Origin: Candidatus Dormiibacterota bacterium
GTDB taxonomy: Bacteria > Chloroflexota > Dormibacteria > CF-121
Length of the DNA: 64,000 nucleotides
NCBI GenBank assembly: GCA_035544955.1
Contig: DASZZN010000033.1
Location: forward strand, 139,329 to 203,328
Direction: 5' to 3'
Positions 21,740-46,353 of this stretch are shown here, one piece after another (position 1 is the stretch's first letter; every line of letters starts with the position of its first letter). Made by a program: the position numbers and the translations under genes. The notes below the pieces were generated by a model. It had not been told where the DNA came from, did not search any database, and saw nothing but the letters and a program-made list of their open reading frames with translations.

Positions 21740-21780
21740 CCCTCAATTGTAAGTTTGCGGCGGCGGAAACTTAAAGGGGC

Positions 21781-23342: not shown

Positions 23343-23347
23343 CGCGC

Positions 23348-26215: not shown

Positions 26216-26294
26216 CAGAGTTTAGTCGTGCCGGAATCTGTTAAACGCTGCCGGTGACTGAAAAACCCGATGATAAGATAGGCTCGAATTCAGG

Positions 26295-26801
26295 ATGGCT
26301 AAATTCGTCGAAATGCAAGTCGACTCCATCCGCGTGCACATGCCCAGCGGGCAGCACGTCGTGATCCTCAAAGAAAAAGAAACAGACCGGTATCTACCGA
26401 TCTGGATCGGCATCTACGAAGCCAACGCGATCGCCCTGAAGATCACGGGCATCACCCCCGAGCGGCCGATCACCCACGACCTGTTGGCCAATATTCTGCA
26501 GAGCGCCGAGATGCGACTCAAGAAAATCCAGGTGACGTCGCTGACAAATGAAGTCTTCTTTGCCAGACTGTTTCTCGCGGTCAACGGCAAGGAAGTCGAG
26601 ATCGACTCGCGACCGAGCGATGCGATCGCGCTCGCGGTCCGGATGACCTGTCCGATCCTTGTCTCACAGGACGTTCTCGACAAGGCCGGCGTGTTCCCCG
26701 AGAAAGAAGAGGAAGAAGAAGACAAACTCTCGATCTTCAAAGAGCTCATCAACAGCATGGACCTGCCGGACCTGGAAGGTCCACCGCCGGAGAAGAGCTA
26801 G
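26295..26801 (+). CDS. bifunctional nuclease family protein (BFN/DUF151)
   Basis: 168 aa; 'HMPSGQHVVILKEKE...RYLPIWIG...EANAIAL' matches the bifunctional DNase/RNase family. Confidence 0.75.
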   Translation: MAKFVEMQVDSIRVHMPSGQHVVILKEKETDRYLPIWIGIYEANAIALKITGITPERPITHDLLANILQSAEMRLKKIQVTSLTNEVFFARLFLAVNGKEVEIDSRPSDAIALAVRMTCPILVSQDVLDKAGVFPEKEEEEEDKLSIFKELINSMDLPDLEGPPPEKS

Positions 26802-27655
26802 CCCGCGATCCGGACCGGGATGCTCGCCTGGAGTACCCGTCCCGACCCGTCGGGAATCAACCAGGTGGCCTCGAGCCGATAATCGCCGGCGCGCGGTGCC
26901 GACAGGGGGAAGCTGGTGAGGTCATACCAACCGCCGAAGATCGGCGTGCCGTTCCAGCTCTCGACGCCGACCGGATTGAGTGCGACGCCCTGACCGTTGC
27001 GGACCAGCGTCAGGGTCAGCCCTTGGTCACCGCTGTTGAGGGACGTCGACGGCGAGCCGATCAACTGGACAGTCACCCGCATCCTGCCATTCGTTGCGTA
27101 GGACGAGCGGTCCGAATCCAGGACCAGGCGCCGCGAGCCATTTGTTGGATCCGAGACAGTCGCGCCATTCGCTGCCGCTCCACTGGACTGCGCGTCAAAC
27201 TGCTGCGTAGACGGAACCGGCGCCGCGAGCGGAGCGATGGCGCCTTTCTGGTTCCGCGTGGCGGAACTGTACGCCGGCGCCGCGGCACCGCCTCCGTTGA
27301 ACGTGCTGGTGCTGGCCGTGCCGGCAGGACCTTGGAAGTGCAACTGCGACACCCCGATGACGACGACGAGCATGGCTGCCGCGCCAGCGCCCAGCCAGCC
27401 GACTGGCGCCCAGCGAAACGACTGGCGGGGCTGCGCCGGGATGCGGAAGGTCCGGGTCGGCGTCTCCATCGGCAGCGCGCGGACGGCATAGACCGTCTCA
27501 CGCAGCCGATCCAGACGCCGCGTGCACTCGGCACAGCCGGCGACGTGTTCCGCGACGCGCGCCTGCGCACGAGCGTCGAGCTCATGGTCGAGATACGCCG
27601 AGAGCTCCTCAAGCGTCGGCTCGGTCGGGATGCGTGGCTCATTCGGCATGGGCAT
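26798..27655 (-). CDS. anti-sigma factor (zf-HC2 N-terminus, single TM)
   Basis: 'HVAGCAECTRRLDRL' zf-HC2 motif, TM 'WLGAGAAAMLVVVIGV', Ala/Ser-rich extracytoplasmic C-domain; overlaps the ECF sigma gene by 17 nt. Confidence 0.7.
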   Translation of the reverse strand: MPMPNEPRIPTEPTLEELSAYLDHELDARAQARVAEHVAGCAECTRRLDRLRETVYAVRALPMETPTRTFRIPAQPRQSFRWAPVGWLGAGAAAMLVVVIGVSQLHFQGPAGTASTSTFNGGGAAAPAYSSATRNQKGAIAPLAAPVPSTQQFDAQSSGAAANGATVSDPTNGSRRLVLDSDRSSYATNGRMRVTVQLIGSPSTSLNSGDQGLTLTLVRNGQGVALNPVGVESWNGTPIFGGWYDLTSFPLSAPRAGDYRLEATWLIPDGSGRVLQASIPVRIAG

Positions 27656-28253
27656 CCTCCCGAGTCGGAAAGAAATCCGGGTGCTGCTGCAGGCGCTCCT
27701 GGACCTGAGCGCGTGCGCGTGCGATCCGCGACTTGACCGTGCCGAGCGGAACGCGAAGCACGGCGGCGATCTCCTCGTACGCCATGCCGTTCACGTCGCG
27801 CAGGACGATCGCGATCCGCATGTCGTGGTCGAGTGCCTGGATGCTGTCACGGACCAGGCGCGTCCGCGCATTCGCCTCGGTTTGCTCCTGCGGATCAGGC
27901 GTCGCGATGCCGAGGCCGACGACGTTACCGGCCTTGGGACTTATCTGATCTTCGTCGGGCATGACGCTGAACCGCCGGCCGCGCCGAAAGTGGTCGTAAC
28001 AGAGATTCGCGGCAATCTGGAACAGCCAGGACTTGAACGGCGCCTCCCGCAGGGTGCGGATCTTTTCCCAGGCGCGGAGAAACGCCTCCTGCGTGATGTC
28101 GGCGGCATCATCCGGTTGGCCGACCATCCGCAGCGCCATGTTGTAGAGCGGGACTTGATATTGCACGATCAATTGGGTAAACGCCTCCCGATCGCCCCGG
28201 CGGGCCCGGCCCACCAGGTCGCGATCGTCGTTCGAGTTGTTAGACGCAACCAT
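27639..28253 (-). CDS. ECF-family RNA polymerase sigma factor
   Basis: Region 2 'DITQEAFLRAWEKI', region 4 'AAVLRVPLGTVKSRIARA'. Confidence 0.85.
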   Translation of the reverse strand: MVASNNSNDDRDLVGRARRGDREAFTQLIVQYQVPLYNMALRMVGQPDDAADITQEAFLRAWEKIRTLREAPFKSWLFQIAANLCYDHFRRGRRFSVMPDEDQISPKAGNVVGLGIATPDPQEQTEANARTRLVRDSIQALDHDMRIAIVLRDVNGMAYEEIAAVLRVPLGTVKSRIARARAQVQERLQQHPDFFPTREDAHAE

Positions 28254-28299: not shown

Positions 28300-28382
28300 G
28301 CCGGAGTGTCGGAATGGTAGACGAGGGCGCCTCAAAAGCGCCTGGGCGTAAGTCCGTGTGGGTTCGAGTCCCTCCTCCGGCA
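28300..28382 (+). tRNA. tRNA-Leu (anticodon CAA), class II
   Basis: Acceptor GCCGGAG/CTCCGGC, 3-bp D-stem, anticodon stem GGCGC/GCGCC loop CTCAAAA, long variable arm, T-loop TTCGAGT (one T-stem mismatch). Confidence 0.7.
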
Positions 28383-28488
28383 GTAACAAATCGGGAATTC
28401 TGAGCGGCCTGCTGGTCACGCTGCGTCCATTTTCCGAGCCTCCACGGGCCGGCAACCGATTGACGATCGGCCGGCACCCCGCCATACT

Positions 28489-28545: not shown

Positions 28546-30993
28546 ATGCGTGTCCAGCGCTCGTTCGGCTTGCCCGCGCGGCTTGCATTGGCATCGCTGC
28601 TCGCCGGAACGACGCTGGCGGGGGCGTCCATCGGCGCCGCGGCCGCCAGCGACGTCACGCTCAGCGTCCTCGTCGGCTACCAGGACGTCGTCAAGCCCGG
28701 CGAGTGGATGCCGATCACGGTCGTCGCCAAGAACGGCGGAGCCGGTATCGATGGCACGCTCGAGCTCCAGGAGACGTTGAACGGCCAACCCGACGTCAGC
28801 GGCTTTCCCGTTTACCACGCGCCGATCAGTCTCGCCAGTGGAGCCAGCAAGCGGATCCGGGCGTACGCCATCATCGACACGAGCGGCGCGACGATCACGG
28901 CGCGAATCGTCCAGAGCGGCCGGGTGATCGTCTCCCAGGACTCCGCGTCGACGAGCACCACGTCGACGATGATCGGCGTCCTCTCCGACCAGGGCACGGC
29001 TCTTGATACCTTCGGGGCCGTTCACCCAGCGAGCGTCGCCGCCCGCGTGGTTCACCTGGCGGCCGGCGACCTCCCGGAGTCGGCGATTCCGCTACGCGCC
29101 TTCGACATCCTCGCGATCGACGACTTCGCCACCGACAGCCTGACCACGGGCCAGCGGACGGCCATCGGCGACTTCGTCCGCGCCGGCGGCGATCTTCTGT
29201 TGGGCACCGGCGCCGCCTGGCACAAGACGCTCGCCGGCCTGCCGACGGCGATCGTGCCGATGACGGTCAGCGGCACCACGAGCGTGACCACCTCCCTGCT
29301 CGGCGGCGCCCCTGTCGAGGTGGCCACCGGGGCCTCGACGCCGGGGCCGGTCTGGCTGGCGACCGGCAGCCAGCCGCTGCTGCTCGAGCGCCAGGTCGGG
29401 GCGGGCATGGTTACGCTTGCCACCTTCGATTGGAATCAGGATCCCGTCGCTGGCTGGAGCGGGACCGCCCCCCTCCTCCGCCAGATCATCGCGCGCTCCG
29501 TGATTGGCGTGGGCAGCTCCAACCAGAACTTCGCCTATGCGATGGGCGTGCCGGGCCCGATGAGCTTCACGTCGCAGCCATCGATCGCCTCCAAGAGCGG
29601 CGCCCTCAGCTCCACGTTAGGGAACCTCCCGGGACTCGACCTGCCATCGCTCCAGCTGACCGGCCTGCTCGTGCTGCTCTACGTCCTGCTCGTGGGTCCC
29701 GTGAACTACATCGTGTTGGGCGCGATGCGGCGCCGAGCGCTTGCCTGGGTCACCGTGCCCCTGATCGCCGTGATCGCCGCCGGCGGCGCCTACGGGGCCG
29801 GGGTCTTCACCAAGGGCCGCTCCGTGCAGGCCAACCAGATCACGATCCTGCATGTGCAGCCGGGCTGGGACCACGCTTACCAGGAAACGTACACCGGGAT
29901 CATGGCGCCGAGTCGCGGTGATTACCAGGCCGTCATCGGCGGAGGGCGGCTCCTGATCAGCCCGATCGTCAACAACAGCGGTTTCGGCCCGGGGGGCTTC
30001 GGAACGGGGTCGCGTGCGGGCAGCCTCCGCATCAACCTGGACAACAACACTGTCACGCTGCCAGGGATGACCGCCTTCGTGCTGGGTGGCTTCGCGACCG
30101 AGTCGATGAGCTCGGCGCCCCAGTTGGGCGCGCACCTCCAGGTGGTGAATGGCAAGCTCACCGGCACGATCGAGAACCACTCGAACCTGGCTTTCACGGA
30201 CGCCGTCCTGATCATGGGCGACAACTTTCAGACCTTTGGCGCGCTGAAACCCGGAGCGACGGCGGCCGTCTCACTGGACCCGAAGCCGTCCAACCTCTTT
30301 GGGCAGCCGACCTACAGCCGCATCTACGGAACCGCATACTTCACCGGCGGCCCGCAGCCGACTCAGCTGAGCGACGCGCAGCGCGAAGATTATGCGAAGG
30401 CGCAGATCCTGGCCGTGCTGCCCACCGGAGGAAGCTTCAAGGGCATTTCGTCCGCGAACACGCCGCTGCTGGTCGCCTGGACGCACGAGTCGTTCCAGGA
30501 CCTCACCGTGAACGGGAATCATCCGCGATCGACGGCCGAAACCGCGGTCGCCCTGTCGCTGTCGCTGGACCAGATTGGTACGGGCTCGTTGCCGGCCGGT
30601 GTCGTCAGCGGCCGCATCGTGGACGTCGTGGGTGACACGCAAGGCCAGGGACCGGTTGGCATGCTGCTGATCCAGAGCGGCAGCGTCACGTACGAATTTT
30701 CGCCCTTGCTGGCGGCCGGCACGCAACTGACCGCCGCCTCGCTCACCACCTCCAACCCGTACGGCGGCAAGTTCATCCCCGCCCCGGGCGGCGGTACAAC
30801 CGCTCCCACGGTCCAGGGACAGGTATGGGACTGGGCACGGTCGACCTGGACCGACGTCGCCTACCAGGACAACGGCACGACCACCCTACCCGACAGCGCC
30901 GTCAATCCCGACAGCGGCCTGGTGCGCCTTCGACTCAGCAGCAGCGGCGGCTTCGTGGCGGGGACCATTACGCTCGCAGGGACGGTCCGATGA
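28546..30993 (+). CDS. large secreted/membrane protein (815 aa): signal peptide, ~370-aa beta-rich domain, internal TM pair, second ~380-aa domain
   Basis: N-terminal signal 'LALASLLAGTTLAGASIGAAAAS'; central hydrophobic pair 'LTGLLVLLYVLLVGPV' and 'WVTVPLIAVIAAGGAYGAGV'; ATGA coupling to the ABC ATPase. Confidence 0.7.
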   Translation: MRVQRSFGLPARLALASLLAGTTLAGASIGAAAASDVTLSVLVGYQDVVKPGEWMPITVVAKNGGAGIDGTLELQETLNGQPDVSGFPVYHAPISLASGASKRIRAYAIIDTSGATITARIVQSGRVIVSQDSASTSTTSTMIGVLSDQGTALDTFGAVHPASVAARVVHLAAGDLPESAIPLRAFDILAIDDFATDSLTTGQRTAIGDFVRAGGDLLLGTGAAWHKTLAGLPTAIVPMTVSGTTSVTTSLLGGAPVEVATGASTPGPVWLATGSQPLLLERQVGAGMVTLATFDWNQDPVAGWSGTAPLLRQIIARSVIGVGSSNQNFAYAMGVPGPMSFTSQPSIASKSGALSSTLGNLPGLDLPSLQLTGLLVLLYVLLVGPVNYIVLGAMRRRALAWVTVPLIAVIAAGGAYGAGVFTKGRSVQANQITILHVQPGWDHAYQETYTGIMAPSRGDYQAVIGGGRLLISPIVNNSGFGPGGFGTGSRAGSLRINLDNNTVTLPGMTAFVLGGFATESMSSAPQLGAHLQVVNGKLTGTIENHSNLAFTDAVLIMGDNFQTFGALKPGATAAVSLDPKPSNLFGQPTYSRIYGTAYFTGGPQPTQLSDAQREDYAKAQILAVLPTGGSFKGISSANTPLLVAWTHESFQDLTVNGNHPRSTAETAVALSLSLDQIGTGSLPAGVVSGRIVDVVGDTQGQGPVGMLLIQSGSVTYEFSPLLAAGTQLTAASLTTSNPYGGKFIPAPGGGTTAPTVQGQVWDWARSTWTDVAYQDNGTTTLPDSAVNPDSGLVRLRLSSSGGFVAGTITLAGTVR

Positions 30994-31907
30994 TTTCGGT
31001 CGAGCAGCTCACCAAGGTCTACGGCAAGCGGACCGCGCTCGACGCGGTCTCATTCGAAGTTCCCAAAGGGGAGATCTTCGGCTTTGTCGGACCGAACGGC
31101 GCCGGGAAGACGACTACGCTGCGCATCCTTGCGGCGCTGCTGGAGCCGACCACGGGACGCGCCTTTGTCGACGGTGCCGACGTGAGCCAGCAGCCGGAGC
31201 GTGTTCACGAACGCCTTGGTTACATGCCGGACTTCTTCGGCGTCTACGATCAGCTCACCGCGGCGGAGTACCTGGATTTCTACGCCGCCTGCTACCGGCA
31301 GCCCAAAGCCCGTCGTACGAAAATCGCGAATGACCTGCTCGAGCTCGTCGGGCTGACCGACCGTCGCGATCAGCCGGTCGACACATTGTCGCGCGGGCTC
31401 AAGCAGCGGCTGTGCCTCGCACGGGCACTGGTGCACGACCCGGCCGTGTTGTTACTCGACGAGCCGGCCTCCGGGCTCGACCCGCGGGCGCGCGTCGAGA
31501 TGCGCGAGATCCTGAGAGAGTTGCAAAAAATGGGCAAGACGATCGTGATCTCGAGCCACATCCTCCCAGAGCTGACGGAGCTCTGCACCATGGTCGGCAT
31601 CATCGATCAGGGTCGGATGCGGGCGACCGGCGCCGTCCAGGACGTCATCCGACAGTTGACCAGCGGGCGACGTCTGCGCATCACGGTGCTCGGTCAGAAG
31701 GAAGAGGCCGCCGCGCTGCTCAGGCCGTTGACGATGATCCACGCGGTCAGCACGGTCAATGGCGCCATCGAGGCCGAGTACGAAGGCGACGACACAACGG
31801 CGGCCAGCATCTTGCAGACGCTGACGGCGGCGGGCATCAAGGTTTCGGGGTTCAGCCAGCTCGAGGGCGGCCTCGAAGACGCGTTCATGAGGGCGACGGA
31901 GGAATGA
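30990..31907 (+). CDS. ABC transporter ATP-binding protein (ABC-2 type)
   Basis: Walker A 'GPNGAGKTT', signature 'LSRGLKQRL', Walker B 'LLLDEPASGLD'. Confidence 0.9.
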   Translation: MISVEQLTKVYGKRTALDAVSFEVPKGEIFGFVGPNGAGKTTTLRILAALLEPTTGRAFVDGADVSQQPERVHERLGYMPDFFGVYDQLTAAEYLDFYAACYRQPKARRTKIANDLLELVGLTDRRDQPVDTLSRGLKQRLCLARALVHDPAVLLLDEPASGLDPRARVEMREILRELQKMGKTIVISSHILPELTELCTMVGIIDQGRMRATGAVQDVIRQLTSGRRLRITVLGQKEEAAALLRPLTMIHAVSTVNGAIEAEYEGDDTTAASILQTLTAAGIKVSGFSQLEGGLEDAFMRATEE

Positions 31908-32950
31908 ACCGCGTCGCGATCGCGCTGTGGAATCCCATCGTCGCCAAGGAGTACCGCTCCCGGATGCGCACCTGGCGCTCACCGCTCGCTATGACGGTTT
32001 ACATCCTCTTGCTGGGCGGCCTGGGCTGGGCGGTCTTTGCGGCGATGGCGTATTCATCGCGCAATTCGTACAACGGTGGGCAGGCCGCCAATTACGGACA
32101 AGGCTTGTTTCTCTATCTGGTGCTGTTTCAAATGGTGTTGCTCGCGTTCATCACCCCGGCCCTGACGGCCGGCGCGATCAGCAGCGAACGCGAGCGCCAG
32201 ACGATCGATTTGCTCTTCGTGACGAAGCTTCCATCGTTTGCGATTCTGTGGGGCAAGCTGCTGGCATCGATGTCCTTCGTGCTCCTGCTCTTGCTGCTCT
32301 CGGTGCCGATTTTCAGTCTGGTGTTCCTTTTCGGCGGGATCGAGCTCGACCAGGTCGCCGCGGCCTTCCTCGTCACGGCGATCAGCGCGTTGACGCTCGG
32401 CATCATCGGGATCGCCTGCTCGACGGCGTTCCGGCGCACGCTGCCGGCGACCGTCACCGCCTACGGGGCGGCCTTCATCCTGCTGGCGGGCAGCCTGCTC
32501 TTTGGGCTCCTCTTCCCGACCGACATCGATCCCAAGGCGACCGCCGCGCCGGCGCCGCCCGCCGTGACATATCTGAGTCCCCTGATTCCCCTGATTACGA
32601 TCGGGACCAACGGGCCCATCACGAATTTCGGGGTGCGCAACGGCGGCCCGCTGTACGGGACCAGTGGCAGCGGCACGACCACGTGCTCCATCACGCCCGG
32701 CGGCATGAAAAGCTGCTACCAGGTCGGCCCGACCGGACCGATCGGAAAAGGCATCATCACGGCCTACCCGGCGCAAGCCACCGGGACGGTCATCCCGAGC
32801 GGGCTCTTCACCGGCTGGCAATACTGGCAGGCGACCGTCACGTTGCAGCTCGCCATCTGTCTCGTCGCCCTCATCGTGGGTGCGATGCTGATCCCACCGA
32901 TTCGCCACCTGCCATGGCGGAGGCGCGCCCCGATAAAGGTCAAGCCATGA
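31904..32950 (+). CDS. ABC-2 family permease
   Basis: 348 aa, six hydrophobic helices, ATGA-coupled to flanking genes. Confidence 0.8.
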   Translation: MNRVAIALWNPIVAKEYRSRMRTWRSPLAMTVYILLLGGLGWAVFAAMAYSSRNSYNGGQAANYGQGLFLYLVLFQMVLLAFITPALTAGAISSERERQTIDLLFVTKLPSFAILWGKLLASMSFVLLLLLLSVPIFSLVFLFGGIELDQVAAAFLVTAISALTLGIIGIACSTAFRRTLPATVTAYGAAFILLAGSLLFGLLFPTDIDPKATAAPAPPAVTYLSPLIPLITIGTNGPITNFGVRNGGPLYGTSGSGTTTCSITPGGMKSCYQVGPTGPIGKGIITAYPAQATGTVIPSGLFTGWQYWQATVTLQLAICLVALIVGAMLIPPIRHLPWRRRAPIKVKP

Positions 32951-34575
32951 ACTCGCTCGACGCGATCATCCGCGAACTCGGACGGGCCGCGGCCCGCGCT
33001 CGAGCCACGCGCTATGGCGTGCACGCGCTGGTCGCGGCGCTCGCCTGGGTCACCCTGGTACTGGCCATCGCCCGACTCACCCCCTTTGAGGGGCGCGCAC
33101 TGGTGGCCGCCGTCGGCATCCCGGTCGTGCTGGCCATCGCGGTGCTCGCCTGGCTGATCCGCCGTCCGAGCGCGGCCGTGCTGATGCGGCTCGCCGATTT
33201 CCGGCTGGGCCTCAAGGAGCGGCTCTCGACGGCCTGGGAGCGGCGGACCGAATCCGGCCCGCTAGACGATGTGCAGCGGGGCGATGCCCTGCGGCAGGCC
33301 GCGGGCGCCCGGCTCGGGACGGCATTTCCCGTGCGGGTGAACCGAGGCGAGGCCTCGCTGATTGCCGTCCTCGCGATCTTTTCGCTGGCGCTCGCGCTGC
33401 TCCCCAACCCGATGGACCAGGTCCTGGCGCAGCGCCAGGCCGACCGCCTGAGCCAGGCGCGCGCCGCCAAGGCCCTGCAGACGGCGCAGAAAAAAATCGC
33501 CGACAGTCCGAAACCGACGCCGGTGGACCCGCAGGTGCAGAAGATCCTCAAGGATGCCGCCGCCAAGATTCAACAGGCCGACAGCCCCCGCAAGGCCCTC
33601 GAATCGATCACGCCGGCCGAACAGCAACTCCAGAGTCTGACCGACCCCGGGACGCCGGCCCTGAGCAGCAGTGCGCAGAACCTCGCCAATGCCTTGAGCG
33701 CGACGGCGGCCGGCAAGAGCGCCGCCCAGGCGATCGCCAGCAGCCCGGCCAAGGGGGCACAGTCCGTGCGCGACCTCGCCTCGCAACTGCAGAACCTCTC
33801 GCCCAAAGATCGCGAGGAGCTGGCGAAGGCGCTCGCGAAGGCCTCCCAGCAGGCGCAAAACAGCCAGATGCGCGACTCGTTGAGCAAGGCCTCGTCCTCG
33901 TTGAAGAGCGGCGACACGACCTCGGCGGCCCAGGCCCTCAATGACGTCGCGAGTCAGCTGGACTCCCTCCAGCAGCAGCAGAACACCGACCAGGCAGTCG
34001 CCTCGGCGATCAACGGGCTGGAGTCCGCCCGTCAGGAGCTCGCCACCCAGGCGGACCGCGACGCGAAAGGCCAGGGGGCGCAGGCGAACGCGGGTAGCAG
34101 CGCATCGCCGGGCGCAAGTCCCGGGGCCGGTGCCAGCGCGAGCGGTAGCGGCACGGGGACGGGCACGGGGACCGGCACGGGCACAGGGACAGGCACCGGG
34201 ACCGGGACCGGCACCGGGACCGGGACCGGCACCGGCACTGGGACGGGCACAGGGACCGGCACCGGCAGCGGTGGGTCCGGCGGTTCCGGCGGCACCGGCT
34301 CCAATGGCTCGGGAACCGGCGGCGGTTCCGGAGCGGCGAGCACCGAGCGCGTCTACGTGCCCGGCCAGCCGGTGCCCGGTCAGTCGCAGAACGATCCCAC
34401 GCCGCTTGGCCCGGGACAGGATGTGCCGCTGAGCCCCTACAGCCAGGTGATCCAGGCCTACCAGCAAGCGGCGCTCGACGCCACGGAGCAGAGCCTGATC
34501 CCCGGCAGTGAGCGCGACCTCGTACGCCAGTATTTCTCGCAGCTCGGTGAGCAGAGTGCGGCCGGCCCCCGGTAA
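32947..34575 (+). CDS. membrane-anchored coiled-coil protein with (Gly-Thr)17 repeat
   Basis: Two N-terminal TM helices, Ala/Gln/Ser-rich low-complexity segment, perfect (GT)17 dipeptide repeat then Gly/Ser linker and a conserved-looking C-terminal ~60 aa. Confidence 0.7.
   Translation: MNSLDAIIRELGRAAARARATRYGVHALVAALAWVTLVLAIARLTPFEGRALVAAVGIPVVLAIAVLAWLIRRPSAAVLMRLADFRLGLKERLSTAWERRTESGPLDDVQRGDALRQAAGARLGTAFPVRVNRGEASLIAVLAIFSLALALLPNPMDQVLAQRQADRLSQARAAKALQTAQKKIADSPKPTPVDPQVQKILKDAAAKIQQADSPRKALESITPAEQQLQSLTDPGTPALSSSAQNLANALSATAAGKSAAQAIASSPAKGAQSVRDLASQLQNLSPKDREELAKALAKASQQAQNSQMRDSLSKASSSLKSGDTTSAAQALNDVASQLDSLQQQQNTDQAVASAINGLESARQELATQADRDAKGQGAQANAGSSASPGASPGAGASASGSGTGTGTGTGTGTGTGTGTGTGTGTGTGTGTGTGTGTGTGSGGSGGSGGTGSNGSGTGGGSGAASTERVYVPGQPVPGQSQNDPTPLGPGQDVPLSPYSQVIQAYQQAALDATEQSLIPGSERDLVRQYFSQLGEQSAAGPR
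34150..34267 (+). repeat. imperfect hexanucleotide tandem repeat (GGSACS)n encoding (Gly-Thr)17
   Basis: ggcacgggg acgggcacg ... accggcacc, read directly; the minus-strand 'PVPVPV' ORF is its mirror image. Confidence 0.85.
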
Positions 34576-34602
34576 GGCGCCGTCGCCGCTCGAGGGAGGA
34601 TC

Positions 34603-35601
34603 ATGATCGCCGAAGAACCGCGCATCGACGCCGCCAGGGTGACCGAACTGGCCCAATCCCTCGAGACCGAGCTGGCCCGTCTCATCGTGGGACAGCAGGC
34701 ACTGCTTCGCGACACCGTCATCGCCCTAATCGCCAACGGCCATGTCCTGCTCGAAGGCGTGCCGGGTCTGGGCAAGACCGTACTCGTCCGATCGCTGGGC
34801 GAGGCGCTCTCGATGAGCTTTTCCCGCGTCCAGTTCACGCCGGACCTGATGCCCGCCGACATCGTGGGGACCAACGTCATCGGCGACGAGGCCGGCCGGC
34901 GGGAGTTCCACTACCAGGCCGGACCCATCTTCGCGAATCTCGTCTTGGCCGACGAGATCAACCGTGCCACGCCGAAGACGCAAAGCGCACTGCTGGAAGC
35001 GATGCAGGAACGCACCGTCACCGTCGGCACCCAGACCCGCCCGTTGCCGTCGCCGTTTTTCGTCCTCGCCACCCAAAACCCGATCGAGCTCGAAGGGACC
35101 TACCCGCTGCCTGAAGCGCAGCTGGATCGGTTTTTCTTCAAGGTCCTGGTGCCCTTCCCCAGCGAGCGCGACCTGCTCGAGATTGCGCGGCGTACCACCG
35201 GCGGGTCGACGCCGAAGCTTCGCCCGGTCGCCGATGCCGAAACCGTCCTTGCGGCACAACGGGTGGCACGCGAGGTGCCGATCGCCGAGCACGTGCTGTT
35301 GTATGCCGCCCGCCTGATCGGCGCAACCCACCCCGACCGTACCGAGCTCGACAGCGTGCGCCGCTACGTCCGCTGGGGCGCCAGCCCCCGCGGCCTGCAG
35401 ACCATGGTGCTTGGCGCCAAGGTGCGGGCGCTGCTCGAGGGACGCTACAACGTCGCCTTCGACGACCTCAGCGCCGTCGCCCAGCCGGCGTTGCGACACC
35501 GGATCTTTCTGCAGTTCGAGGCCGAGGCCGACGGGATGACCGCGGACCGTCTCATCAGCGAGATCCTGGAGCACACCGTCAAGGAACCGGCGAAGGCCTA
35601 G
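34603..35601 (+). CDS. MoxR-family AAA+ ATPase
   Basis: Walker A 'GVPGLGKT', Walker B 'LVLADEINRATPKTQSALLEAMQE', sensor regions. Confidence 0.9.
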   Translation: MIAEEPRIDAARVTELAQSLETELARLIVGQQALLRDTVIALIANGHVLLEGVPGLGKTVLVRSLGEALSMSFSRVQFTPDLMPADIVGTNVIGDEAGRREFHYQAGPIFANLVLADEINRATPKTQSALLEAMQERTVTVGTQTRPLPSPFFVLATQNPIELEGTYPLPEAQLDRFFFKVLVPFPSERDLLEIARRTTGGSTPKLRPVADAETVLAAQRVAREVPIAEHVLLYAARLIGATHPDRTELDSVRRYVRWGASPRGLQTMVLGAKVRALLEGRYNVAFDDLSAVAQPALRHRIFLQFEAEADGMTADRLISEILEHTVKEPAKA

Positions 35602-35603
35602 CC

Positions 35604-36482
35604 GTGACGCCGGCCGTCCTCCTGGAGCCCGCCCTGCTTCGCCGTCTCGAAGGCCTTGCGCTCCAGGTCCGGCGCGCCGTCAGCGGGCAAATGAGTGGCG
35701 AACGGCGCTCACGCCGCCGCGGCCAGTCTGTCGAATTCGCGGATTTTCGCAACTACACCGCCGGCGACGACTTTCGGCTGATCGATTGGAACGCGTATGC
35801 CCGACTCGACCGGTTCATGCTGCGCCTCTTCGTCGCTGAAGAAGAGTTGCCCCTGAGCCTATTCGTCGATCTCAGCGGGTCGATGGACTGGGGCAAACCG
35901 AACAAAGCCGAGGCGGCGAGGCAGCTGGCCGGTGCCATCGCCTACGTCGCCCTGGCGGCGTTGGACCGCGTGCGGCTGACGGTCTTTGCGGACGGCCCGA
36001 CGTCCGGTGGAGCACCCTACCGCGGCCGGCGCGCCGCCGCGGAACTGTTCGCCCGGCTGCAATCGCTGCCGGCGGGCGGCGTCACGAACTATCAGAAGCT
36101 GGTCTGGCCGATTGGCCGGCAGCGGCCGGGCATGAGCGTGCTCATCAGCGACGGCCTCGGCGAGACGTCGATGGATCCGGCGCTGATGGCGTTGCAGCGC
36201 GCACAGCAGGAAGGCGCGGTCCTGCAGCTGCTTGCCCCACAGGAGCTGACGCCGGACTGGTCAGGCGATGCCCGCCTGAAGGACGCCGAGACCGGGCTGG
36301 AGCGGGAGTTTACCGCCACGCCGCTGACCCAGGGCAGCTACCTGCGTGCGCTGGCCCAGCGCACGGATGATATCGAGCGGGCCGCCCGTCGGCGGGGCCT
36401 GCGCTTCGCTCGCCTGTCGACGGCAGAACCCATCGACGAGATGGTGCAGATCACGCTGCGCCGCCTCGGGCTGCTCGGATGA
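35604..36482 (+). CDS. DUF58-domain protein (MoxR partner, VWA-like)
   Basis: 'FADFRNYTAGDDFRLIDWNAYARLDR' DUF58 signature; immediately downstream of MoxR. Confidence 0.8.
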   Translation: MTPAVLLEPALLRRLEGLALQVRRAVSGQMSGERRSRRRGQSVEFADFRNYTAGDDFRLIDWNAYARLDRFMLRLFVAEEELPLSLFVDLSGSMDWGKPNKAEAARQLAGAIAYVALAALDRVRLTVFADGPTSGGAPYRGRRAAAELFARLQSLPAGGVTNYQKLVWPIGRQRPGMSVLISDGLGETSMDPALMALQRAQQEGAVLQLLAPQELTPDWSGDARLKDAETGLEREFTATPLTQGSYLRALAQRTDDIERAARRRGLRFARLSTAEPIDEMVQITLRRLGLLG

Positions 36483-38302
36483 GCTTCCTCGCCCCGGCGG
36501 CCGCGATCCTGGCGCTGACGCTCCCGGCCATCGTCGCGTTGTATTTCTTAAAGATCCGGCGGCCGACGCGGATCGTGCCCGCGCTGCATCTGTGGCCCGA
36601 TCAGATCCGCGACCGCCAGGCCAACGTCCCCTGGCAACGGCTTCGTCCCAGCTGGCTGCTATTTCTCCAGTTGCTCGCCGCCGCGGTCCTGGTGGCGGCG
36701 GCCGTCCAGCCGGCGCTCCCCGCCGGCGCCGCGCTGGCCCGCCACAGCATCGTGCTGCTCGACGCGTCGGCATCGATGCAGGCGACCGACGTCGCGCCGT
36801 CGCGCCTCGAGGAGGCGAAGCACCAGGTCAATGCCATCATCGACCAGCTCGGGCCACAGGACCGAATGACGGTGATCGCCGTCGGGCCCGCCGCCCGCAT
36901 CGTCGCTTCTGTCACTGGCGACCGGGACACGCTGCATCGCGCGGTCAACGCCGTCCCGGCGAGCAATGGCGCGGCGGACTTATCAGCTGCTTTGGCGCTG
37001 GCCGCGGGCCTGGTCCGCGCGGGCGACGACGCCCGCGCCTACCTGTTCGCCGACGGCATCGTCCAGCCGCTGCGCGCGTCGTTCGCGGCCGGCCTGCCGT
37101 TTCCCGTCGAGTACCATCGGGTCGGCGTCTCGGGGGAAAACGTCGGGCTGACGTCGCTAACGGTCCGGACCAGCGCACAGTTGCGAGCCGCCTATCTGCA
37201 CGTGCAGAACTTCGGTCAGCAGCCGCGCTCGGTCACCGTCGAGTGGCGGGCCGACGGCCACCTGCTCGATGTGCGGCCATTGACGCTCGCGGCCGCCCAG
37301 GCGCAGGACCTGGTCCTCCCAGTTCCGAGCGACGCGACGTCGGTCTCCGCGCACCTCGCCGGCAACGACATCTTCGCGCTCGACGACGGCGCGACCGCGG
37401 TCGCCAGCACGCCCCGCGCCTTCCGCGTCCAGCTGGTGACCCCAGGCAACGTCTTCCTCGAGCAGGCGCTCCGCCTGCGCACCGACCTCCAGATCGATGT
37501 CATCGTCCCGGCGGCCTACCGGGCGAGCGCCGCCTATGCTCTGACCGTTTTCGACCGCTTCTCGCCGCCGCTGCTGCCCGACGGCCCGTTCGTCATGGTC
37601 GATCCGCCGTCGGGGTCGGTGCTGGCCGGCGGGCAACCGATCGGCGTCGGGCGCGTCCGTGCCGTCGACGCCGGCGATCCCCTGCTGGCCAATGTCGACC
37701 TGCAGGACGTCCATGTCGCCCGCAGCCAGGACTTGAGCAGCTCGACATTCGGCCGGCCGCTGATCAGCAGCCTGCAGACGCCCCTGGTCCTCGTCCGCGA
37801 CGAGCCGTTTCGTCAGGTGCTGGTCGGTTTCGATCTGCACGAGTCCGACCTCCCGCTGCGCATCGCGTTTCCGATCCTGGTCCAGAACCTGAGTGAGTGG
37901 CTGCTGCCCCCGAGCGTCCCCAGCCACAGCTTCCATCCGGACGAACCCGTCACCATCGTGCCCGAGGCGGGTGCAACGTCGGTGACCGTGGTCCGGCCGG
38001 ACGGCAGCCGCCGGCCCATCGCGACCGCGTCCATTGCGACCTTCGGCGAAACCGACCAGACGGGCCTCTACACCGTCGAACAGGTCGTCGCCGGCAAGGT
38101 GGACCGCTCCTGGTTCAGCGTGAATTTGTTTTCTGATCCGATTTCGCAGCTCAAGCCACCCGACCGGCTGACGCTGCCGCCGACGAGGACGACCGTGGTG
38201 CAGGCGACCCATCGCGGCCAGCTCGAGATCTGGCCGTGGATCGCGCTCGCGGCGCTTGCCGTCGTGACGGCCGAATGGCTGGCCTTCCACCGTGGGCTTT
38301 GA
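36479..38302 (+). CDS. BatA-like membrane protein (BatA N-terminal domain + VWA)
   Basis: 'LTLPAIVALYFLKIRRP' aerotolerance-regulator N-domain, MIDAS 'VLLDASASM', C-terminal TM. Confidence 0.8.
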   Translation: MSFLAPAAAILALTLPAIVALYFLKIRRPTRIVPALHLWPDQIRDRQANVPWQRLRPSWLLFLQLLAAAVLVAAAVQPALPAGAALARHSIVLLDASASMQATDVAPSRLEEAKHQVNAIIDQLGPQDRMTVIAVGPAARIVASVTGDRDTLHRAVNAVPASNGAADLSAALALAAGLVRAGDDARAYLFADGIVQPLRASFAAGLPFPVEYHRVGVSGENVGLTSLTVRTSAQLRAAYLHVQNFGQQPRSVTVEWRADGHLLDVRPLTLAAAQAQDLVLPVPSDATSVSAHLAGNDIFALDDGATAVASTPRAFRVQLVTPGNVFLEQALRLRTDLQIDVIVPAAYRASAAYALTVFDRFSPPLLPDGPFVMVDPPSGSVLAGGQPIGVGRVRAVDAGDPLLANVDLQDVHVARSQDLSSSTFGRPLISSLQTPLVLVRDEPFRQVLVGFDLHESDLPLRIAFPILVQNLSEWLLPPSVPSHSFHPDEPVTIVPEAGATSVTVVRPDGSRRPIATASIATFGETDQTGLYTVEQVVAGKVDRSWFSVNLFSDPISQLKPPDRLTLPPTRTTVVQATHRGQLEIWPWIALAALAVVTAEWLAFHRGL

Positions 38303-40997
38303 TGTAAGCCGCCCCCTGCTGCTGGGGGCGGGCGTGCTGGCGCTGGTCATCATCGTCGCGATCTGGCGCTTCTTTCCGCCGCCATTACCGCCGCGGCGTG
38401 CGCGCATCTCGTTGGGGCTCCGCACCCTGATCGTGCTGCTGCTGACGGCCGCCCTCGCGGGCTTGCAGGTCCAGACGACGCCGGCGGCCCAATCGCTGCT
38501 GGTCGTGGCGGATCTTTCGGCAAGCGTGCAGAGCGCGTTGGACAGCGAAGCCGCCACCGTGCGACGCATCCTGCAACAGCGACAGGGCGACAACCGCGCC
38601 GGGGTCCTGAGCTTCGGTCGCGATCCTCAAGTGGAAGTGAACGTCAGTAAGGACCCGCAGTTCGGCGAGTTCCAGAGCCAACCCAACCCGCATTACACGG
38701 ACATCGCCGCGGCGCTCCAACTCGGCGGATCGATCCTCCCGGATGACAGCCGGCGGCACATCGTGCTGATCAGCGATGGGCGCGCGAACCTCGGCGACGC
38801 GGTCGGCGAGGCGCGCCTGCTCCGTGCGGAGGGGGTTCGGGTCGATACCGTTGCGCTGCCGGTGCCACTCGGCGCCGAGGCCTACGTCGATCGCCTCGAC
38901 GCGCCGCGTACCCTGACCCAGGGCCAGCAGGCCGATGCGCAGGCGCTGATCGTCAGCAACACGGCCACGCCGGCAACCGTCCGCTGGTACCTCGATCGCA
39001 CGCTGGTCAACACGGTGCAGCTCAACCTCCCGGTGGGTGAGACGACGGTCAAACAGACCGTCAAGCCGGCCGAGCCCGGATTCCACGCCGTTCGAATCGT
39101 GATCGATCCGGTGCGCGATACGTACGCCGAGAACAATCTCGGCGAGGCGCTGATCCAGGTGGTCGGACCGCCACGCGTCCTGCTCGTCGAAAACACGCTG
39201 GGCGAGGCAGCCAGCCTCGAGGCGGCGCTGCATTCGACGGGGATCGGCACCGCGGTCGTCACCCCTGACCAGTTGCCCCGCTCGGCCGCGGACCTCGCCG
39301 CCTACCAGGCCGTGGTCCTCGTCAACATTCCGGCGACGAGCCTGGGCGTCGACGGCATGGCGCTCTTGCAGGCATCCGTCCGCGACCTTGGCACGGGCCT
39401 GGTCGTCATCGGCGGCACGGAGAGCTACGGTCCCGGCGGATATGCCGGCACGACGTTGGAAACGGCACTTCCGGTCCAGATCCAGCTCCCGCTGGACATG
39501 CAGAAACCGCCGGTGGCGGTCGTCCTCGTGTTGGAATCAACAGAGAGTGGCCAGGGTGACCAGATTCTGCGTGGGGCGGCCGAGTCCGTCGTCGACCAGC
39601 TCACCCCGCGCGACAGCGTCGGCGTCACCGACGGCGGGATGGGCATGGTCATCCCGCTCGCCCCGCTGACGGACAAGGCCGCGGTCAAGCGCAAGATCGA
39701 GGCGCTGGGCCTCGGCGACCCGATGAGCTACGCCCCCGACCTGGGCGCGGCCGACCAGGCGCTGACCAAGACGAAGGCGGCCATCAAGCACGTCATTCTC
39801 TTTGGCGATGGCGACACCTTCGACCGCAACTATCAATCCGCGATCACCGCGATGTACAGCCGCGGAATCACGGTGTCGACCGTCGCGATCGCGGCCAACG
39901 CGACCGATGCGTCCGCGATGCAGTCGATGGCCGGCTGGGGACACGGCCGCTTCTATCAGAGCAACAGCCTGCAAGACGTGCCGCAGATCTTCTTGAAAGA
40001 GACGCGCGAGGCCCTCAAGCCCTGGATCGTCGAAGGACAAATCGCGCCACAGCTCGCGTCGCTGGCGGACGTGATTCCCGGGGTACCCCTCGACAGTTTT
40101 CCGACGATATCGGGCTACGTAGCGACCACGCCGCGGGCCGCCGCGGACATCGTGCTGAAGAGTCCCCAGGGCGATCCCTTGCTGGCGACCTGGCAGTACG
40201 GCCTGGGCCGGGTGCTGGCCTGGACCAGCGATGCGCAAGGCCGGTGGACGGCGGGCCTGCTGCAATGGCCGTCCGCCAATCGCTTCTTCGGGGATATCGT
40301 CCATGCGAGCCTGCCGCAGGCCGGCGACCCCGCGCTGCAGATCGAGACCCGGGTCCAGGGCGACCACACGCACCTGCTGGTGACCGCGCCGACGACCTCC
40401 GGCGCCACGGTGACGGTCAACGCCGTCACGCCCGACCTCGCCGGTGCCAGCCTGACGCTGTCGCCCACCGGCCCAGGCCGCTTCGAGGGCGACCTGCCCA
40501 CCGACCAGGTTGGCAGCTACCTGCTCCACGTGAGTGAGTCGGCCGGCGGCGTGGTTCGACACACGACGACGAGCGGGCTGGTGGTTCCCTATTCGCCCGA
40601 GTACCGAGACCTTGGCACCAACGTCGCTACGCTGACCGCGATCGCGCAGGCCGGGGGCGGCGTCGTGCTCTCGGACGTTTCGCAGGCATTCCGCCTCCCG
40701 GTACCGAGCGTGCATGCCGCCCAGCCGATCAGCGAGCTCCTGCTCGTGCTCGCGATCCTGCTCTTCCCGATCGACGTCGCCCTGCGGCGGCTCATCTTCC
40801 GGCTGGAAGACATGCCGGCCTGGCGCAAAGCGCTGCAGCGAGCGCCGGCGCCCGCCGTTCCCGCCGAGGCGACCGTGACACGGCTCCGGGAACGCGTCGA
40901 GGGCGTCCGCGCCGCCAGGGCGGCGCAACCCCGACCGCCCAAGAAACCCCCGGATGATCCCACCGGCGAGCTGCTGTCCCGCCGGCGCCGGCGTTGA
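38292..40997 (+). CDS. large VWA-domain membrane protein (BatB-like, 901 aa)
   Basis: N-terminal TM pair, MIDAS 'VVADLSASV', second VWA-like block 'VLVLESTESGQGD', C-terminal TM and basic tail. Confidence 0.8.
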   Translation: MGFDVSRPLLLGAGVLALVIIVAIWRFFPPPLPPRRARISLGLRTLIVLLLTAALAGLQVQTTPAAQSLLVVADLSASVQSALDSEAATVRRILQQRQGDNRAGVLSFGRDPQVEVNVSKDPQFGEFQSQPNPHYTDIAAALQLGGSILPDDSRRHIVLISDGRANLGDAVGEARLLRAEGVRVDTVALPVPLGAEAYVDRLDAPRTLTQGQQADAQALIVSNTATPATVRWYLDRTLVNTVQLNLPVGETTVKQTVKPAEPGFHAVRIVIDPVRDTYAENNLGEALIQVVGPPRVLLVENTLGEAASLEAALHSTGIGTAVVTPDQLPRSAADLAAYQAVVLVNIPATSLGVDGMALLQASVRDLGTGLVVIGGTESYGPGGYAGTTLETALPVQIQLPLDMQKPPVAVVLVLESTESGQGDQILRGAAESVVDQLTPRDSVGVTDGGMGMVIPLAPLTDKAAVKRKIEALGLGDPMSYAPDLGAADQALTKTKAAIKHVILFGDGDTFDRNYQSAITAMYSRGITVSTVAIAANATDASAMQSMAGWGHGRFYQSNSLQDVPQIFLKETREALKPWIVEGQIAPQLASLADVIPGVPLDSFPTISGYVATTPRAAADIVLKSPQGDPLLATWQYGLGRVLAWTSDAQGRWTAGLLQWPSANRFFGDIVHASLPQAGDPALQIETRVQGDHTHLLVTAPTTSGATVTVNAVTPDLAGASLTLSPTGPGRFEGDLPTDQVGSYLLHVSESAGGVVRHTTTSGLVVPYSPEYRDLGTNVATLTAIAQAGGGVVLSDVSQAFRLPVPSVHAAQPISELLLVLAILLFPIDVALRRLIFRLEDMPAWRKALQRAPAPAVPAEATVTRLRERVEGVRAARAAQPRPPKKPPDDPTGELLSRRRRR

Positions 40998-41039: not shown

Positions 41040-41560
41040 ATGTTTCCTGGTGCCAGCTTGATCCAGATTCTGATCCAGATTCTGATCCTGCTCTTGATCG
41101 TGCGCGCGATCTTCTCCTGGTTCCCGCAGATGCTGTACACCGAGGCCGGGCGGATCGTCGTCATGGCCACCGAGTGGTACCTGGCGCCGCTTCGCCGGGT
41201 CATCCCCCCGGCCGGCGGGCTGGATCTCTCTTTCCTCGTCGGCATCATTCTGCTCTATGCCTTGCAGGCCTTCATCGGCACGGCGAACATCGCGGTCGCC
41301 CTGCTCGTCATCGTCCGCTCTGCCCTTATCTTCTGCATCATCCTGGTGCTGATCCGCGTGTTCTTCGGGTTCTTTCAGATGGATCCCTGGCATCCGATCA
41401 CGCAGATGGTGATGCAGGCGACCGAGCCCTTTGCCCGGCCGTTCCGGCAGTGGTTTCCGAAACGCCCGCGCGAGTTCGATTGGGCGCCGATCGCGGCCTT
41501 CGTCGTTTTGCTGGCCGCCCTGGTCCTGGTCTCGACCCTGGCCAGCTTCTTCGGGATCGG

Positions 41561-41564
<4 letters not shown>
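41040..41564 (+). CDS. YggT-family membrane protein
   Basis: Two YggT repeats ('LLLIVRAIFSWFP' and 'LVLIRVFFGFFQMDPWHP'). Confidence 0.7.
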
Positions 41565-45120
<3,556 letters not shown>

Positions 45121-45124
<4 letters not shown>

Positions 45125-46353
45125 GCGTTCCGTTCGAGCTTGACGACCGCCTCGATGTGGAAGGTCTGGGGAAACATGTCGACGAAAGCCACCTCCACTA
45201 GGGTATAGCGTCCGGCGGCACAAAAACGATTGACATCTCGCGCCAGCGTCGACGGATCACACGAGATGTAGACAATCCGTTCGGCCCGCAAGTTCGCCAT
45301 CGCCTCGACGGCGGCCTCGGCACAACCGGCGCGTGGCGGATCGAGGACCACGACGTCGACGGCCTCATCGACCTGGCTCACGATATCCTCCACCCGGCCG
45401 CGGCGGTAGCGGACATTGCCACAGGCGTTGAGCTGCATGTTGAGCTCACCGAGCCGGACTGCGTAGGGACTCTCTTCTACCGCGATGACATTCGCGGCAT
45501 CACCGGCGAGACGAGCCGTGAGCATCCCGATCCCTGCATACGCGTCGACGACCTGCTCGCGACCACTGAGCTGCGCAAACGCGACCGCGCGCTCGTAGAG
45601 CACGTCGCGCTGCCGCGCGTTGACCTGGACGAACGCCTCAGGACGCACGCGAAAGTGCCGGCCGGCATCGTCCATGCCGATGGAATCGTCGTTGAGATTC
45701 AACTCCGGAATCCAACCCGCGGCCCGGGTGCCGAATCCAGGATCGGCCGTACCCGGTGGATAGGGCGCCCAGAGGAGATCGCTCGTGCCGGGCGCCCAGG
45801 TGAACTGCAGGGCCGTGACCCGAGCCGCCGCCGGATCCTCCGCGGCACGCGCGAATGCTGGGAGCGCCCGCTCGATCGCTTCGGCGTGGATCAGGCAGGC
45901 GTCGATCGGCAGCGTCTGGTACGTGTGCTTGCGGTAGAAGCCAAGGCTGACCGCTCCGCCGCGACGCAGGACGTGGAACTCGCCGCGGAGCCGGTAGCGC
46001 CAGGGATCATCCATCCCCAGGACGTCGATGCGATCGATCGGAAATTCCAGGTGGGCACGCTCGAGCTGGCGATGCAGCACCTGGCGTTTCTGGGCGAGCT
46101 GCTCAGGATAGGCGAGGTACTGCAGCTGACACCCGCCGCATCCCGCCTTGAAGTACGGACAGGGTGGCTCGACGCGCGCGGCTGCGGGGTCCAGCACCGC
46201 GGTGGCCTGGGCGCGCCAGAAGTCCTTGCGCCGATGCGTGACCTCGGCCTCGACCGTCTCGCCGGGGATGGCCCCTTCGACGAACACGACGCGGCCATCG
46301 ATGCGCGCCACCGCCGCCCCGCCGTGGGCGAGCTCGCCAACCGTCAGTTGCAC
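45121..46353 (-). CDS. rlmD: 23S rRNA (uracil-C5)-methyltransferase RlmD/RumA
   Basis: TRAM N-domain '[32 protein letters not shown]', Fe-S Cys cluster 'CPYFKAGCGGCQLQ', SAM-MTase motifs 'VVDAYAGIG' and 'VVLDPPRAG'; GTG start sharing 1 nt with gatB stop. Confidence 0.8.

Follow-up and report, generated by a model that had tools for sequence, protein, structure and literature searches.

MoxR-DUF58-VWA cassettes, also called Bat-like, are among the most widespread bacterial operons for which no mechanism is available. MoxR ATPases and vWA proteins also form the remodelling pairs RavA-ViaA, NorQ-NorD, CbbQ-CbbO and, in Mg-chelatase, BchI-BchD, and those ATP-binding cassette (ABC) transporters of the ABC-2 type that have a large accessory ectodomain protein, GldAFG for example, link ATP hydrolysis in the cytoplasm to events beyond the membrane. 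According to the passages of PMC3893208 on this point, MoxR ATPases with a vWA partner bearing a metal ion-dependent adhesion site (MIDAS) remodel or assemble specific complexes. Phenotypes reported for Bat-like cassettes comprise aerotolerance, envelope defects or none (PMC5700661, PMC3557215, PMC11834572). In archaea, the passages of PMC5898192 on DUF4350 (arCOG01314) describe a GldG-like protein with a flavodoxin-like ectodomain, whose gene accompanies those of a COG0714 MoxR ATPase and a vWA protein, and there Makarova, Galperin and Koonin (2015) predicted this set to be a 'novel secretion or membrane remodelling complex'. Here we describe a cluster of eight plus-strand genes, g1 to g8, from Candidatus Dormiibacterota bacterium (GenBank assembly GCA_035544955.1, contig DASZZN010000033.1, positions 139,329 to 203,328), in which a MoxR-DUF58-VWA cassette follows an ABC-2 transporter and two membrane proteins of unannotated families. 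The whole 64-kb stretch analysed, GC-rich throughout (about 62–71%), is called the window.

Order and strand of the cluster were unchanged in about 60 independent loci from three phyla, so chance does not account for the arrangement, and the conserved unit is exactly g1 to g8. The loci were sampled at one genome per GTDB species with a single peptide pattern, Y[IV]LLVGPVN, taken from a 10-sequence alignment, which yielded 80 loci, mostly from metagenome-assembled genomes (MAGs); about half belonged to Dormibacterota and the other half to Chloroflexota (Anaerolineae, Dehalococcoidia, 'Chloroflexia' and Limnocylindrales), plus one Bacillota MAG. The window proteins were compared with these loci by tblastn, and counts include only loci with enough downstream DNA present. 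The order g1, ABC ATPase, permease, g4, MoxR, DUF58, BatA/VWA and second VWA gene was shared by Dormibacterota, Chloroflexota and Bacillota, including loci with a g1 only 24–30% identical. Among distant loci, with a g1 less than 35% identical, the ABC ATPase followed g1 in all 39 and the permease in 37 of the 39 (an insertion displaced the other two), MoxR was present in 31 of 31, and DUF58 and BatA/VWA each in 29 of 30. Gene-call tables with Pfam assignments displayed the same architecture in Calderihabitans maritimus, Syntrophomonas, two further lineages and Dormibacterota relatives. The start/stop overlaps of g1 to g4 recurred in Dehalococcoidia and Bacillota loci, one of which (L046) had three overlaps of 4 nt, and overlaps were also present in L083 and L086. 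No upstream gene was common to all distant loci, and the flanks varied by lineage, so that what is conserved is the g1–g8 module and not synteny in general.

In the window, all eight open reading frames (ORFs), with boundaries measured directly, were found where an earlier note, made by reading the DNA without database searches, had placed them (Table 1). Adjacent genes overlap by 4 nt at g1/g2, g2/g3, g3/g4 and g6/g7 (ATGA at 30990, 31904, 32947 and 36479), as that note had described, whereas the g7/g8 overlap, between the GTG start of g8 at 38292 and the g7 stop at 38302, measured 11 nt and not the 8 nt it had given. The remaining junctions are gaps of 27 nt between g4 and g5, with the ribosome-binding site GGGAGGA, and of 2 nt between g5 and g6. 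The eight genes are probably carried on one transcript. A sigma-70-like promoter candidate (TTGACG-17-CATACT) matches the consensus between a tRNA-Leu gene and g1, which is weak evidence because one site was found against 1.1 expected by chance; a scan for internal terminators gave no usable evidence, with 13 against 7.7 ± 3.1 in shuffled sequence, and an Rfam search upstream of g1 returned no riboswitch or leader element. The domain calls of the earlier note held up in Pfam for six of the eight proteins, and g1 and g4 remained without a match in Pfam or NCBIfam, also when the thresholds were permissive.

Table 1. Positions in the window of the eight genes, associated sequence elements and flanking genes.
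Feature	Position	Strand	Description
g1	28546..30993	+	815-aa membrane protein
g2	30990..31907	+	305-aa ABC transporter ATPase, DrrA/GldA-like ABC-2 type
g3	31904..32950	+	ABC-2 permease
g4	32947..34575	+	542-aa membrane protein
g5	34603..35601	+	MoxR-type AAA+ ATPase, 332 aa
g6	35604..36482	+	DUF58 protein, vWA-like
g7	36479..38302	+	BatA-type membrane protein, 607 aa
g8	38292..40997	+	901-aa membrane protein with VWA and GATase1-like regions
Promoter candidate	28460..28488	+	sigma-70-like, consensus match
Hexanucleotide repeat	34149..34271	+	codes (GT)19, g4 aa 402–439; Tandem Repeats Finder (TRF) period 6, 20.5 copies, in-frame
zf-HC2-type anti-sigma factor	26798–27655	-	one transmembrane segment and extracytoplasmic domain
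Extracytoplasmic function (ECF) sigma factor	27639–28253	-	divergent, upstream of g1
tRNA-Leu(CAA)	28300–28382	+	ARAGORN; also Rfam E-value search (50.3 bits)
YggT-family membrane protein	41040–41564	+	YGGT 9e-29; 42 nt past g8
dnaE	41561–45223	-	DNA polymerase III alpha; convergent with YggT gene

The cluster could alternatively be read as two unrelated neighbours, an ABC-2 exporter for drug, peptide or lipid efflux with its accessory protein beside a Bat-like stress module. MoxR-DUF58-VWA cassettes are common without ABC genes (PMC5700661, PMC11834572), the junction of the two halves is a gap without overlap, and the ABC proteins match generic DrrA-type models best. However, adjacency, order and strand are kept in each of the 31 distant loci across three phyla while the flanks change, the g4/MoxR junction of locus L088 is itself a 4-nt overlap, the bridging g4 is conserved, and the g1 ectodomain and g8 domains have a fold and a weak Pfam family in common (DUF7408, GATase1_like), so that this account appears unlikely. 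The earlier note had joined the ABC and MoxR parts in one operon and named independent, unlinked operons in relatives as the finding that would speak against it; the neighbourhood comparison shows that the two parts are not independent and thereby rejects that objection, and the overall interpretation of the note is supported.

Some loci depart from the window in detail. An extra ORF of about 200 aa without Pfam match lies between the g4 homologue and MoxR in two loci (L041, 16309–16944; L055, 17076–17690), and such an ORF, which has no counterpart in the window, may be a lineage-specific component in some Chloroflexota. In one distant lineage (L085, 17431–18354) an additional 307-aa gene, also without Pfam match, stands between MoxR and DUF58. 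Contigs L010, L022, L025, P0284, P0341 and P0438 carry g1 or g4 homologues 46–82% identical to the window proteins under the labels Candidatus Binatus, Sulfotelmatobacter, Actinomycetes, Ignavibacteria and Actinobacteria; the neighbouring genes in L010, L022 and L025 fit the Dormibacterota arrangement, and the odd labels are probably due to mis-binning or mislabelling of MAG contigs.

The g1 protein consists of a Sec-type signal peptide, a β-sandwich (residues 37–132), an α/β domain (about 141–292), two amphipathic helices, a transmembrane (TM) hairpin at 369–424 (369–393 and 397–424) and a β-rich ectodomain of about 390 aa (428–815). An AlphaFold2 model from a 52-sequence alignment reached a predicted local distance difference test (pLDDT) score of 86.9 and a predicted TM-score (pTM) of 0.88; the alignment was needed, as the single-sequence model was useless (pLDDT 31.6). 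The model contains the signal-peptide helix and the internal TM pair read earlier from the letters. At fold level the α/β domain is clearly GATase1/GIFT-like, and its closest structural neighbours are annotated just as GATase1-like or ThuA-like; a Foldseek search of g1 against the PDB gave no whole-chain match, with generic β-sandwich matches only (TM-score about 0.1). No Cys, His or Glu occupies an invariant or nearly invariant column of the 52-sequence g1 alignment, and the absence of a conserved catalytic Cys-His-Glu triad marks the domain as a scaffold or binding module, not as an amidotransferase. Across the whole family, conservation is highest in the hairpin and its tight, basic turn on the cytoplasmic side (VGPxNYLVLRRxxRRxxAWVTIP), a pattern that fits a protein-protein contact inside the membrane.

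Judged by profile similarity, g1 is a member of a large family without annotation. Its close homologues are all 'hypothetical protein' from soil MAGs labelled Candidatus Dormibacteraeota or 'Chloroflexi bacterium', and an exhaustive HMMER search of 50%-identity cluster representatives retrieved 5590 relatives at E<=1e-3 and 600 at E<=1e-30; among the best 150 of the 5590, most are full length at about 800 aa. Members from Bacillota include those of Calderihabitans maritimus (WP_088553337.1), Syntrophomonas sp. and Syntrophomonadaceae. Profile searches with g1 and g4 found only Dormibacterota-level relatives and brought no annotation, the g4 homologues being all 'hypothetical'. The N-terminal ectodomain of distant family members gave weak Pfam matches to DUF7408 (32 of 52) and DUF4350 (26 of 52), and the minority of these scores that were compared with the Pfam cut-offs lay below them; CARDB and GATase1_like were matched once each. 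The DUF4350- or GldG-like signal that the earlier note had proposed to look for is present but weak in the family and absent from the sequence of the window g1; what is clear at fold level is the GATase1/GIFT domain. BLASTP of g1 against g7 and g8 detected no sequence-level paralogy; a relationship between the GATase1-like ectodomain of g1 and domains found in Bat-type VWA membrane proteins is suggested by weak DUF7407 and DUF7408 matches, given below.

The g2 product matches ABC_tran (9e-32) and DrrA1-3_C in Pfam, with intact Walker A (GPNGAGKT), signature (LSRGLK) and Walker B (VLLLDE) motifs, and g3 matches ABC2_membrane_3 (4.9e-12) and ABC2_membrane_2 (8.3e-07), with six predicted TM segments, of which TM5 and TM6 are joined by an extracytoplasmic loop of about 107 aa. 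Against NCBIfam, drrA (250.8 bits) ranked above GldA (228.6 bits) for g2, both under their cut-offs. The GldA equivalog TIGR03522 has a cut-off of 402.6 bits, and g3 scored 24.2 bits against the cut-off of 288.5 for the GldF equivalog TIGR03518; GldG (TIGR03521/ABC_transp_aux) was detected neither in g1 nor in the 52 family members at NCBIfam E<=0.1 and Pfam E<=0.01. Because these scores fall short, the likeness to GldAFG is one of architecture and fold only: the loose resemblance noticed earlier stands in those two respects and fails against all three equivalog models.

The same results bear on a possible role in gliding or surface motility, with the cluster as a relative of the GldA/GldF/GldG apparatus of Bacteroidota. 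Gliding occurs in some filamentous Chloroflexota, by a mechanism that is not established; GldA is the second-best NCBIfam match of g2, GldF is the best for g3, although at 24 bits far under the cut-off, and the g1 ectodomain is of the GIFT/GATase1-like fold class reported for GldG in the relevant passages of PMC5898192. Nevertheless, besides the failing equivalog models, no other gld or spr genes are present, and the cluster also occurs in MAGs of Dehalococcoidia, Dormibacterota and Syntrophomonas, so that a motility role is very unlikely. These three lineages are not known to glide.

The g4 protein, which bridges the two halves, belongs to a conserved family by its own alignment, with position and motifs kept in Chloroflexota. 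It begins with a TM hairpin, a short cytoplasmic segment with GLKERLSTAWE and a third TM segment ending in LLPNPMD, three predicted TM segments where the earlier note had counted two, and continues with about 250 aa of helical stalk, a Gly-Thr linker measured as (GT)19 instead of the (GT)17 first read, and a conserved C-terminal motif, VYVP...DLVRQYFSQL (in the family VYVP...PY.EVY..Y...IP...KDYVR.YFSQLEP). The Gly-X linker is hypervariable in length and composition, with GN/GS/GT mixes in other Dormibacterota and GQ/GE in Chloroflexota, and may serve as a spacer of variable length or be glycosylated.

In the second half, g5 matches AAA_3 (3.6e-63; 211.7 bits, cut-off 27) and AAA_lid_2 (5.6e-17; 61.7 bits) and has intact Walker A (GVPGLGKT) and Walker B (LVLADE) motifs; with these domains and motifs, and with DUF58 and then VWA membrane genes directly after it, g5 belongs with the MoxR-proper (MRP) ATPases. 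It has no TM segments and is predicted to be cytoplasmic, as is g6 (DUF58, 4.2e-28; MIDAS DLSGS at residue 89), since the latter has no predicted TM segment or signal peptide. The g7 product is of BatA type by its Pfam scores (BatA 1e-11, 45.5 bits, cut-off 25.9; VWA_2 1.7e-17, 64.4 bits) and comprises an N-terminal double TM, an extracytoplasmic VWA domain (MIDAS DASAS at 95), about 400 undefined residues and a C-terminal TM. In g8 (VWA_2 9e-16, VWA 6.8e-13, GATase1_like 1.2e-09) a double TM is followed by a VWA domain (MIDAS DLSAS at 74), a GATase1-like domain, a second VWA, a second GATase1_like domain and a C-terminal TM, beyond which a basic tail of about 70 aa lies in the cytoplasm; sequence matches in the PDB were 3rht (residues 324–411), 3soz/2gk3 (580–672) and the BatB-like 4jdu/3ibs. 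DxSxS MIDAS motifs are intact in g6, g7 and g8. By the positive-inside rule, g7 and g8 are predicted to expose their VWA and GATase1-like domains on the outside of the cell, which agrees with the periplasm-facing VWA orientation mapped experimentally in the BatA-like BB0173 (PMC5700661). Weak matches to DUF7408 were observed on g8 (aa 602–642) and in the g1 family, and to DUF7407 on a g7 homologue (L087, 13468–15294).

Metal or cofactor delivery, in which a NosFY-like ABC-2 transporter and a NorQ/CoxD/CbbQ-like MoxR would load or activate an extracytoplasmic metalloprotein, has to be weighed against this background. MoxR-vWA pairs are established maturation factors of metal-containing complexes, the ABC2_membrane_2 family matched by g3 includes NosY, and three MIDAS metal sites are present; yet the conserved module contains no metalloenzyme, chaperone or NosD/NosL-like gene, its flanks depend on the lineage, and the invariant columns of g1 hold no Cys, His or Met ligands, which leaves this explanation as a minor possibility. 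That the cluster is a MoxR-vWA-type system for defence against phages or for biological conflict is most improbable: g5 matches the Pfam model bpMoxR (7.8e-10), which derives from MoxR-vWA-β-propeller ternary systems, but PADLOC gave generic P-loop matches to the two ATPases only and none to the other six proteins, the setting from polA/fpg to dnaE is core chromosomal and does not differ in composition from the remainder of the window, the pattern of conservation from phylum to phylum is vertical and syntenic, and most products are membrane or extracytoplasmic structural proteins.

The genes around the cluster are less constant than the module. The ECF sigma/anti-sigma pair that the earlier note had reported divergently upstream is present, although tRNA-Leu(CAA) intervenes, and by tblastn it lies beside the cluster only in Dormibacterota loci with g1 at least 63% identical, where it might regulate the cluster in a lineage-specific way. 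The YggT gene noted behind the cluster is likewise there, but YggT and dnaE follow g8 in close relatives only; both are kept in Ca. Dormibacter sp. (L087), and in L088 an aminotransferase takes the place of the YggT gene. Since they are kept in close relatives only, the ECF pair and YggT lie outside the conserved module. The tRNA-Leu gene was missed by the whole-window Rfam gathering run, apparently through its speed filters. Further upstream (19679–26801) are uvrB, a PAP2 membrane protein, fpg/mutM, polA and a BFN-domain protein, and this core housekeeping context supports a chromosomal, non-mobile setting.

The set thus comprises two cytoplasmic ATPases with intact motifs, a DUF58 adaptor and five membrane proteins (g1, g3, g4, g7 and g8), and the large non-catalytic domains of g1, g4, g7 and g8 are predicted to face outward: GATase1/GIFT-like scaffolds, VWA domains with MIDAS motifs, β-sandwiches, and the long helical stalk with its flexible Gly-X linker. 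That g1 to g8 form one co-functional module is very probable. For the function of the cluster, we infer that the eight genes could be parts of one envelope machine anchored in the cytoplasmic membrane of Dormibacterota, Chloroflexota and some Bacillota, a reading to which we give about even chances and in support of which we cite the packing and coupling of the genes, their order across three phyla, the conserved g4, the intact motifs, and the Bat and archaeal literature. The specific mechanism is proposed tentatively. In it, g1 would be the accessory ectodomain subunit of the g2/g3 transporter, as GldG is for GldA/GldF, with its invariant TM hairpin docking on the permease g3; g4 would be a stalk reaching into the wall or surface layer, and g7 and g8 an extracytoplasmic MIDAS/GATase1-like scaffold; and MoxR-DUF58 might assemble, remodel or reset this membrane VWA scaffold from the cytoplasmic side, like other MoxR-vWA pairs. 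The ATP-driven parts may in this way build, maintain or operate a scaffold that exports, anchors or organises a cell-surface component, a role in envelope integrity, surface assembly or secretion and not in solute transport or catalysis. Less likely than not is the wider idea of a previously unrecognised, phylum-spanning type of secretion or surface assembly in Terrabacteria (Chloroflexota, Dormibacterota and some Bacillota), in which an ABC-2 mechanotransducer with a GldG-like g1 and MoxR-DUF58 would jointly drive a scaffold of VWA, GATase1-like and stalk proteins.

Several observations weigh against one envelope machine. The locus sample could have missed relatives without the MoxR half, because one narrow pattern was used. 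The conserved module contains no candidate substrate gene, g1 fails the GldG sequence tests, and the window g1 itself has no DUF4350 or DUF7408 match in Pfam. Physical contact between the ABC and MoxR halves is suggested by gene linkage only, and the members of the cluster are known from genes and predictions alone. Moreover, phenotypes of Bat-type operons are inconsistent between bacteria, and in Leptospira biflexa neither growth nor morphology was altered by deletion of the full bat operon, nor did an oxidative-stress phenotype appear (PMC3557215).

Should the joint-machine reading be true, it would constitute a new secretion or surface-assembly type and offer a first mechanistic handle on MoxR-DUF58-VWA (Bat) modules. 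In three phyla the cassette is firmly tied to an ABC-2 transporter and to g1 and g4, two conserved membrane protein families without annotation, which suggests that at least in this group it works at the cell envelope with an ATP-driven transporter, and the linkage names concrete candidate partners for it. Furthermore, the formerly unannotated g1 family, of about 5600 clusters at 50% identity, gains a confident structural model, and experiments are possible because the cluster is present in the cultured Calderihabitans maritimus. The strict ABC-MoxR linkage is informative for work on MoxR/Bat and on the envelope of Chloroflexota and Terrabacteria, without being a radical surprise.

In accordance with the earlier note, which had recognised no characterised system, none of the hidden Markov model libraries used (Pfam, NCBIfam, PADLOC) places the whole set in one, and a literature search found no publication describing the g1–g8 cluster within the collection searched. 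In GldA/GldF/GldG of Flavobacterium johnsoniae, an ABC ATPase and an ABC-2 permease are combined with a large GIFT/GATase1-like accessory protein, as in the cluster, and the substrate is likewise not established; GldG carries its TM anchors at the termini and is not known to have a central hairpin, the Gld genes lack the linkage to MoxR-DUF58-VWA, and their host phyla differ. MoxR-vWA pairs resemble g5/g6 in joining an AAA+ MoxR-family ATPase to a MIDAS-bearing vWA adaptor and offer a model of how g5/g6 might act on a target, but they act on soluble or respiratory enzymes, whereas the cluster has no conserved candidate targets other than its own membrane proteins.

At about 330 aa each, BatA and BatB are much smaller than g7 (607 aa) and g8 (901 aa), the latter with two GATase1-like domains. 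Bat/MRP operons, with examples in Bacteroides fragilis (BatI), Leptospira, Borrelia (BB0170–0176), Riemerella and Rhizobium (RL3499–RL3502), nevertheless run like the cluster from MoxR through DUF58 and a BatA-type double-TM VWA protein to a second membrane VWA protein, with outward-facing VWA domains (PMC5700661) and an obscure function. Unlike in these operons, the window cassette is preceded by, and coupled to, the ABC-2 transporter, g1 and g4, and Pfam revealed no BatC (TPR), BatD or BatE (TPR/SH3) among the eight products or in the relatives' clusters examined. Bat-type operons have envelope or stress phenotypes in some species (PMC5700661, PMC11834572); in Rhizobium, defects of the envelope and of morphology are described in PMC5700661 for mutants of the MoxR-DUF58 operon.

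The archaeal DUF4350-MoxR-vWA prediction is the closest published idea to the cluster. Both sets place a membrane-anchored flavodoxin/GATase1-like protein with a GldG-like extracellular domain next to MoxR and vWA genes, have other membrane or secreted Ig-like proteins nearby, and are known from predictions alone. Compared with arCOG01314, the MoxR and vWA (DUF58) neighbours are present and the g1 fold is related, with a different topology: a signal peptide and a single TM at the C terminus characterise the archaeal protein, whereas in g1 the internal hairpin is followed by another ectodomain, about 390 aa long. The archaeal table lists S-layer-like proteins, which are absent from the window cluster, and no ABC transporter, no BatA-type double-TM VWA protein and no g4-like stalk protein. 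What the cluster has beyond the archaeal set is an ABC-2 transporter, by which the analogy with GldG becomes concrete, as well as BatA-type VWA membrane proteins and the g4 stalk.

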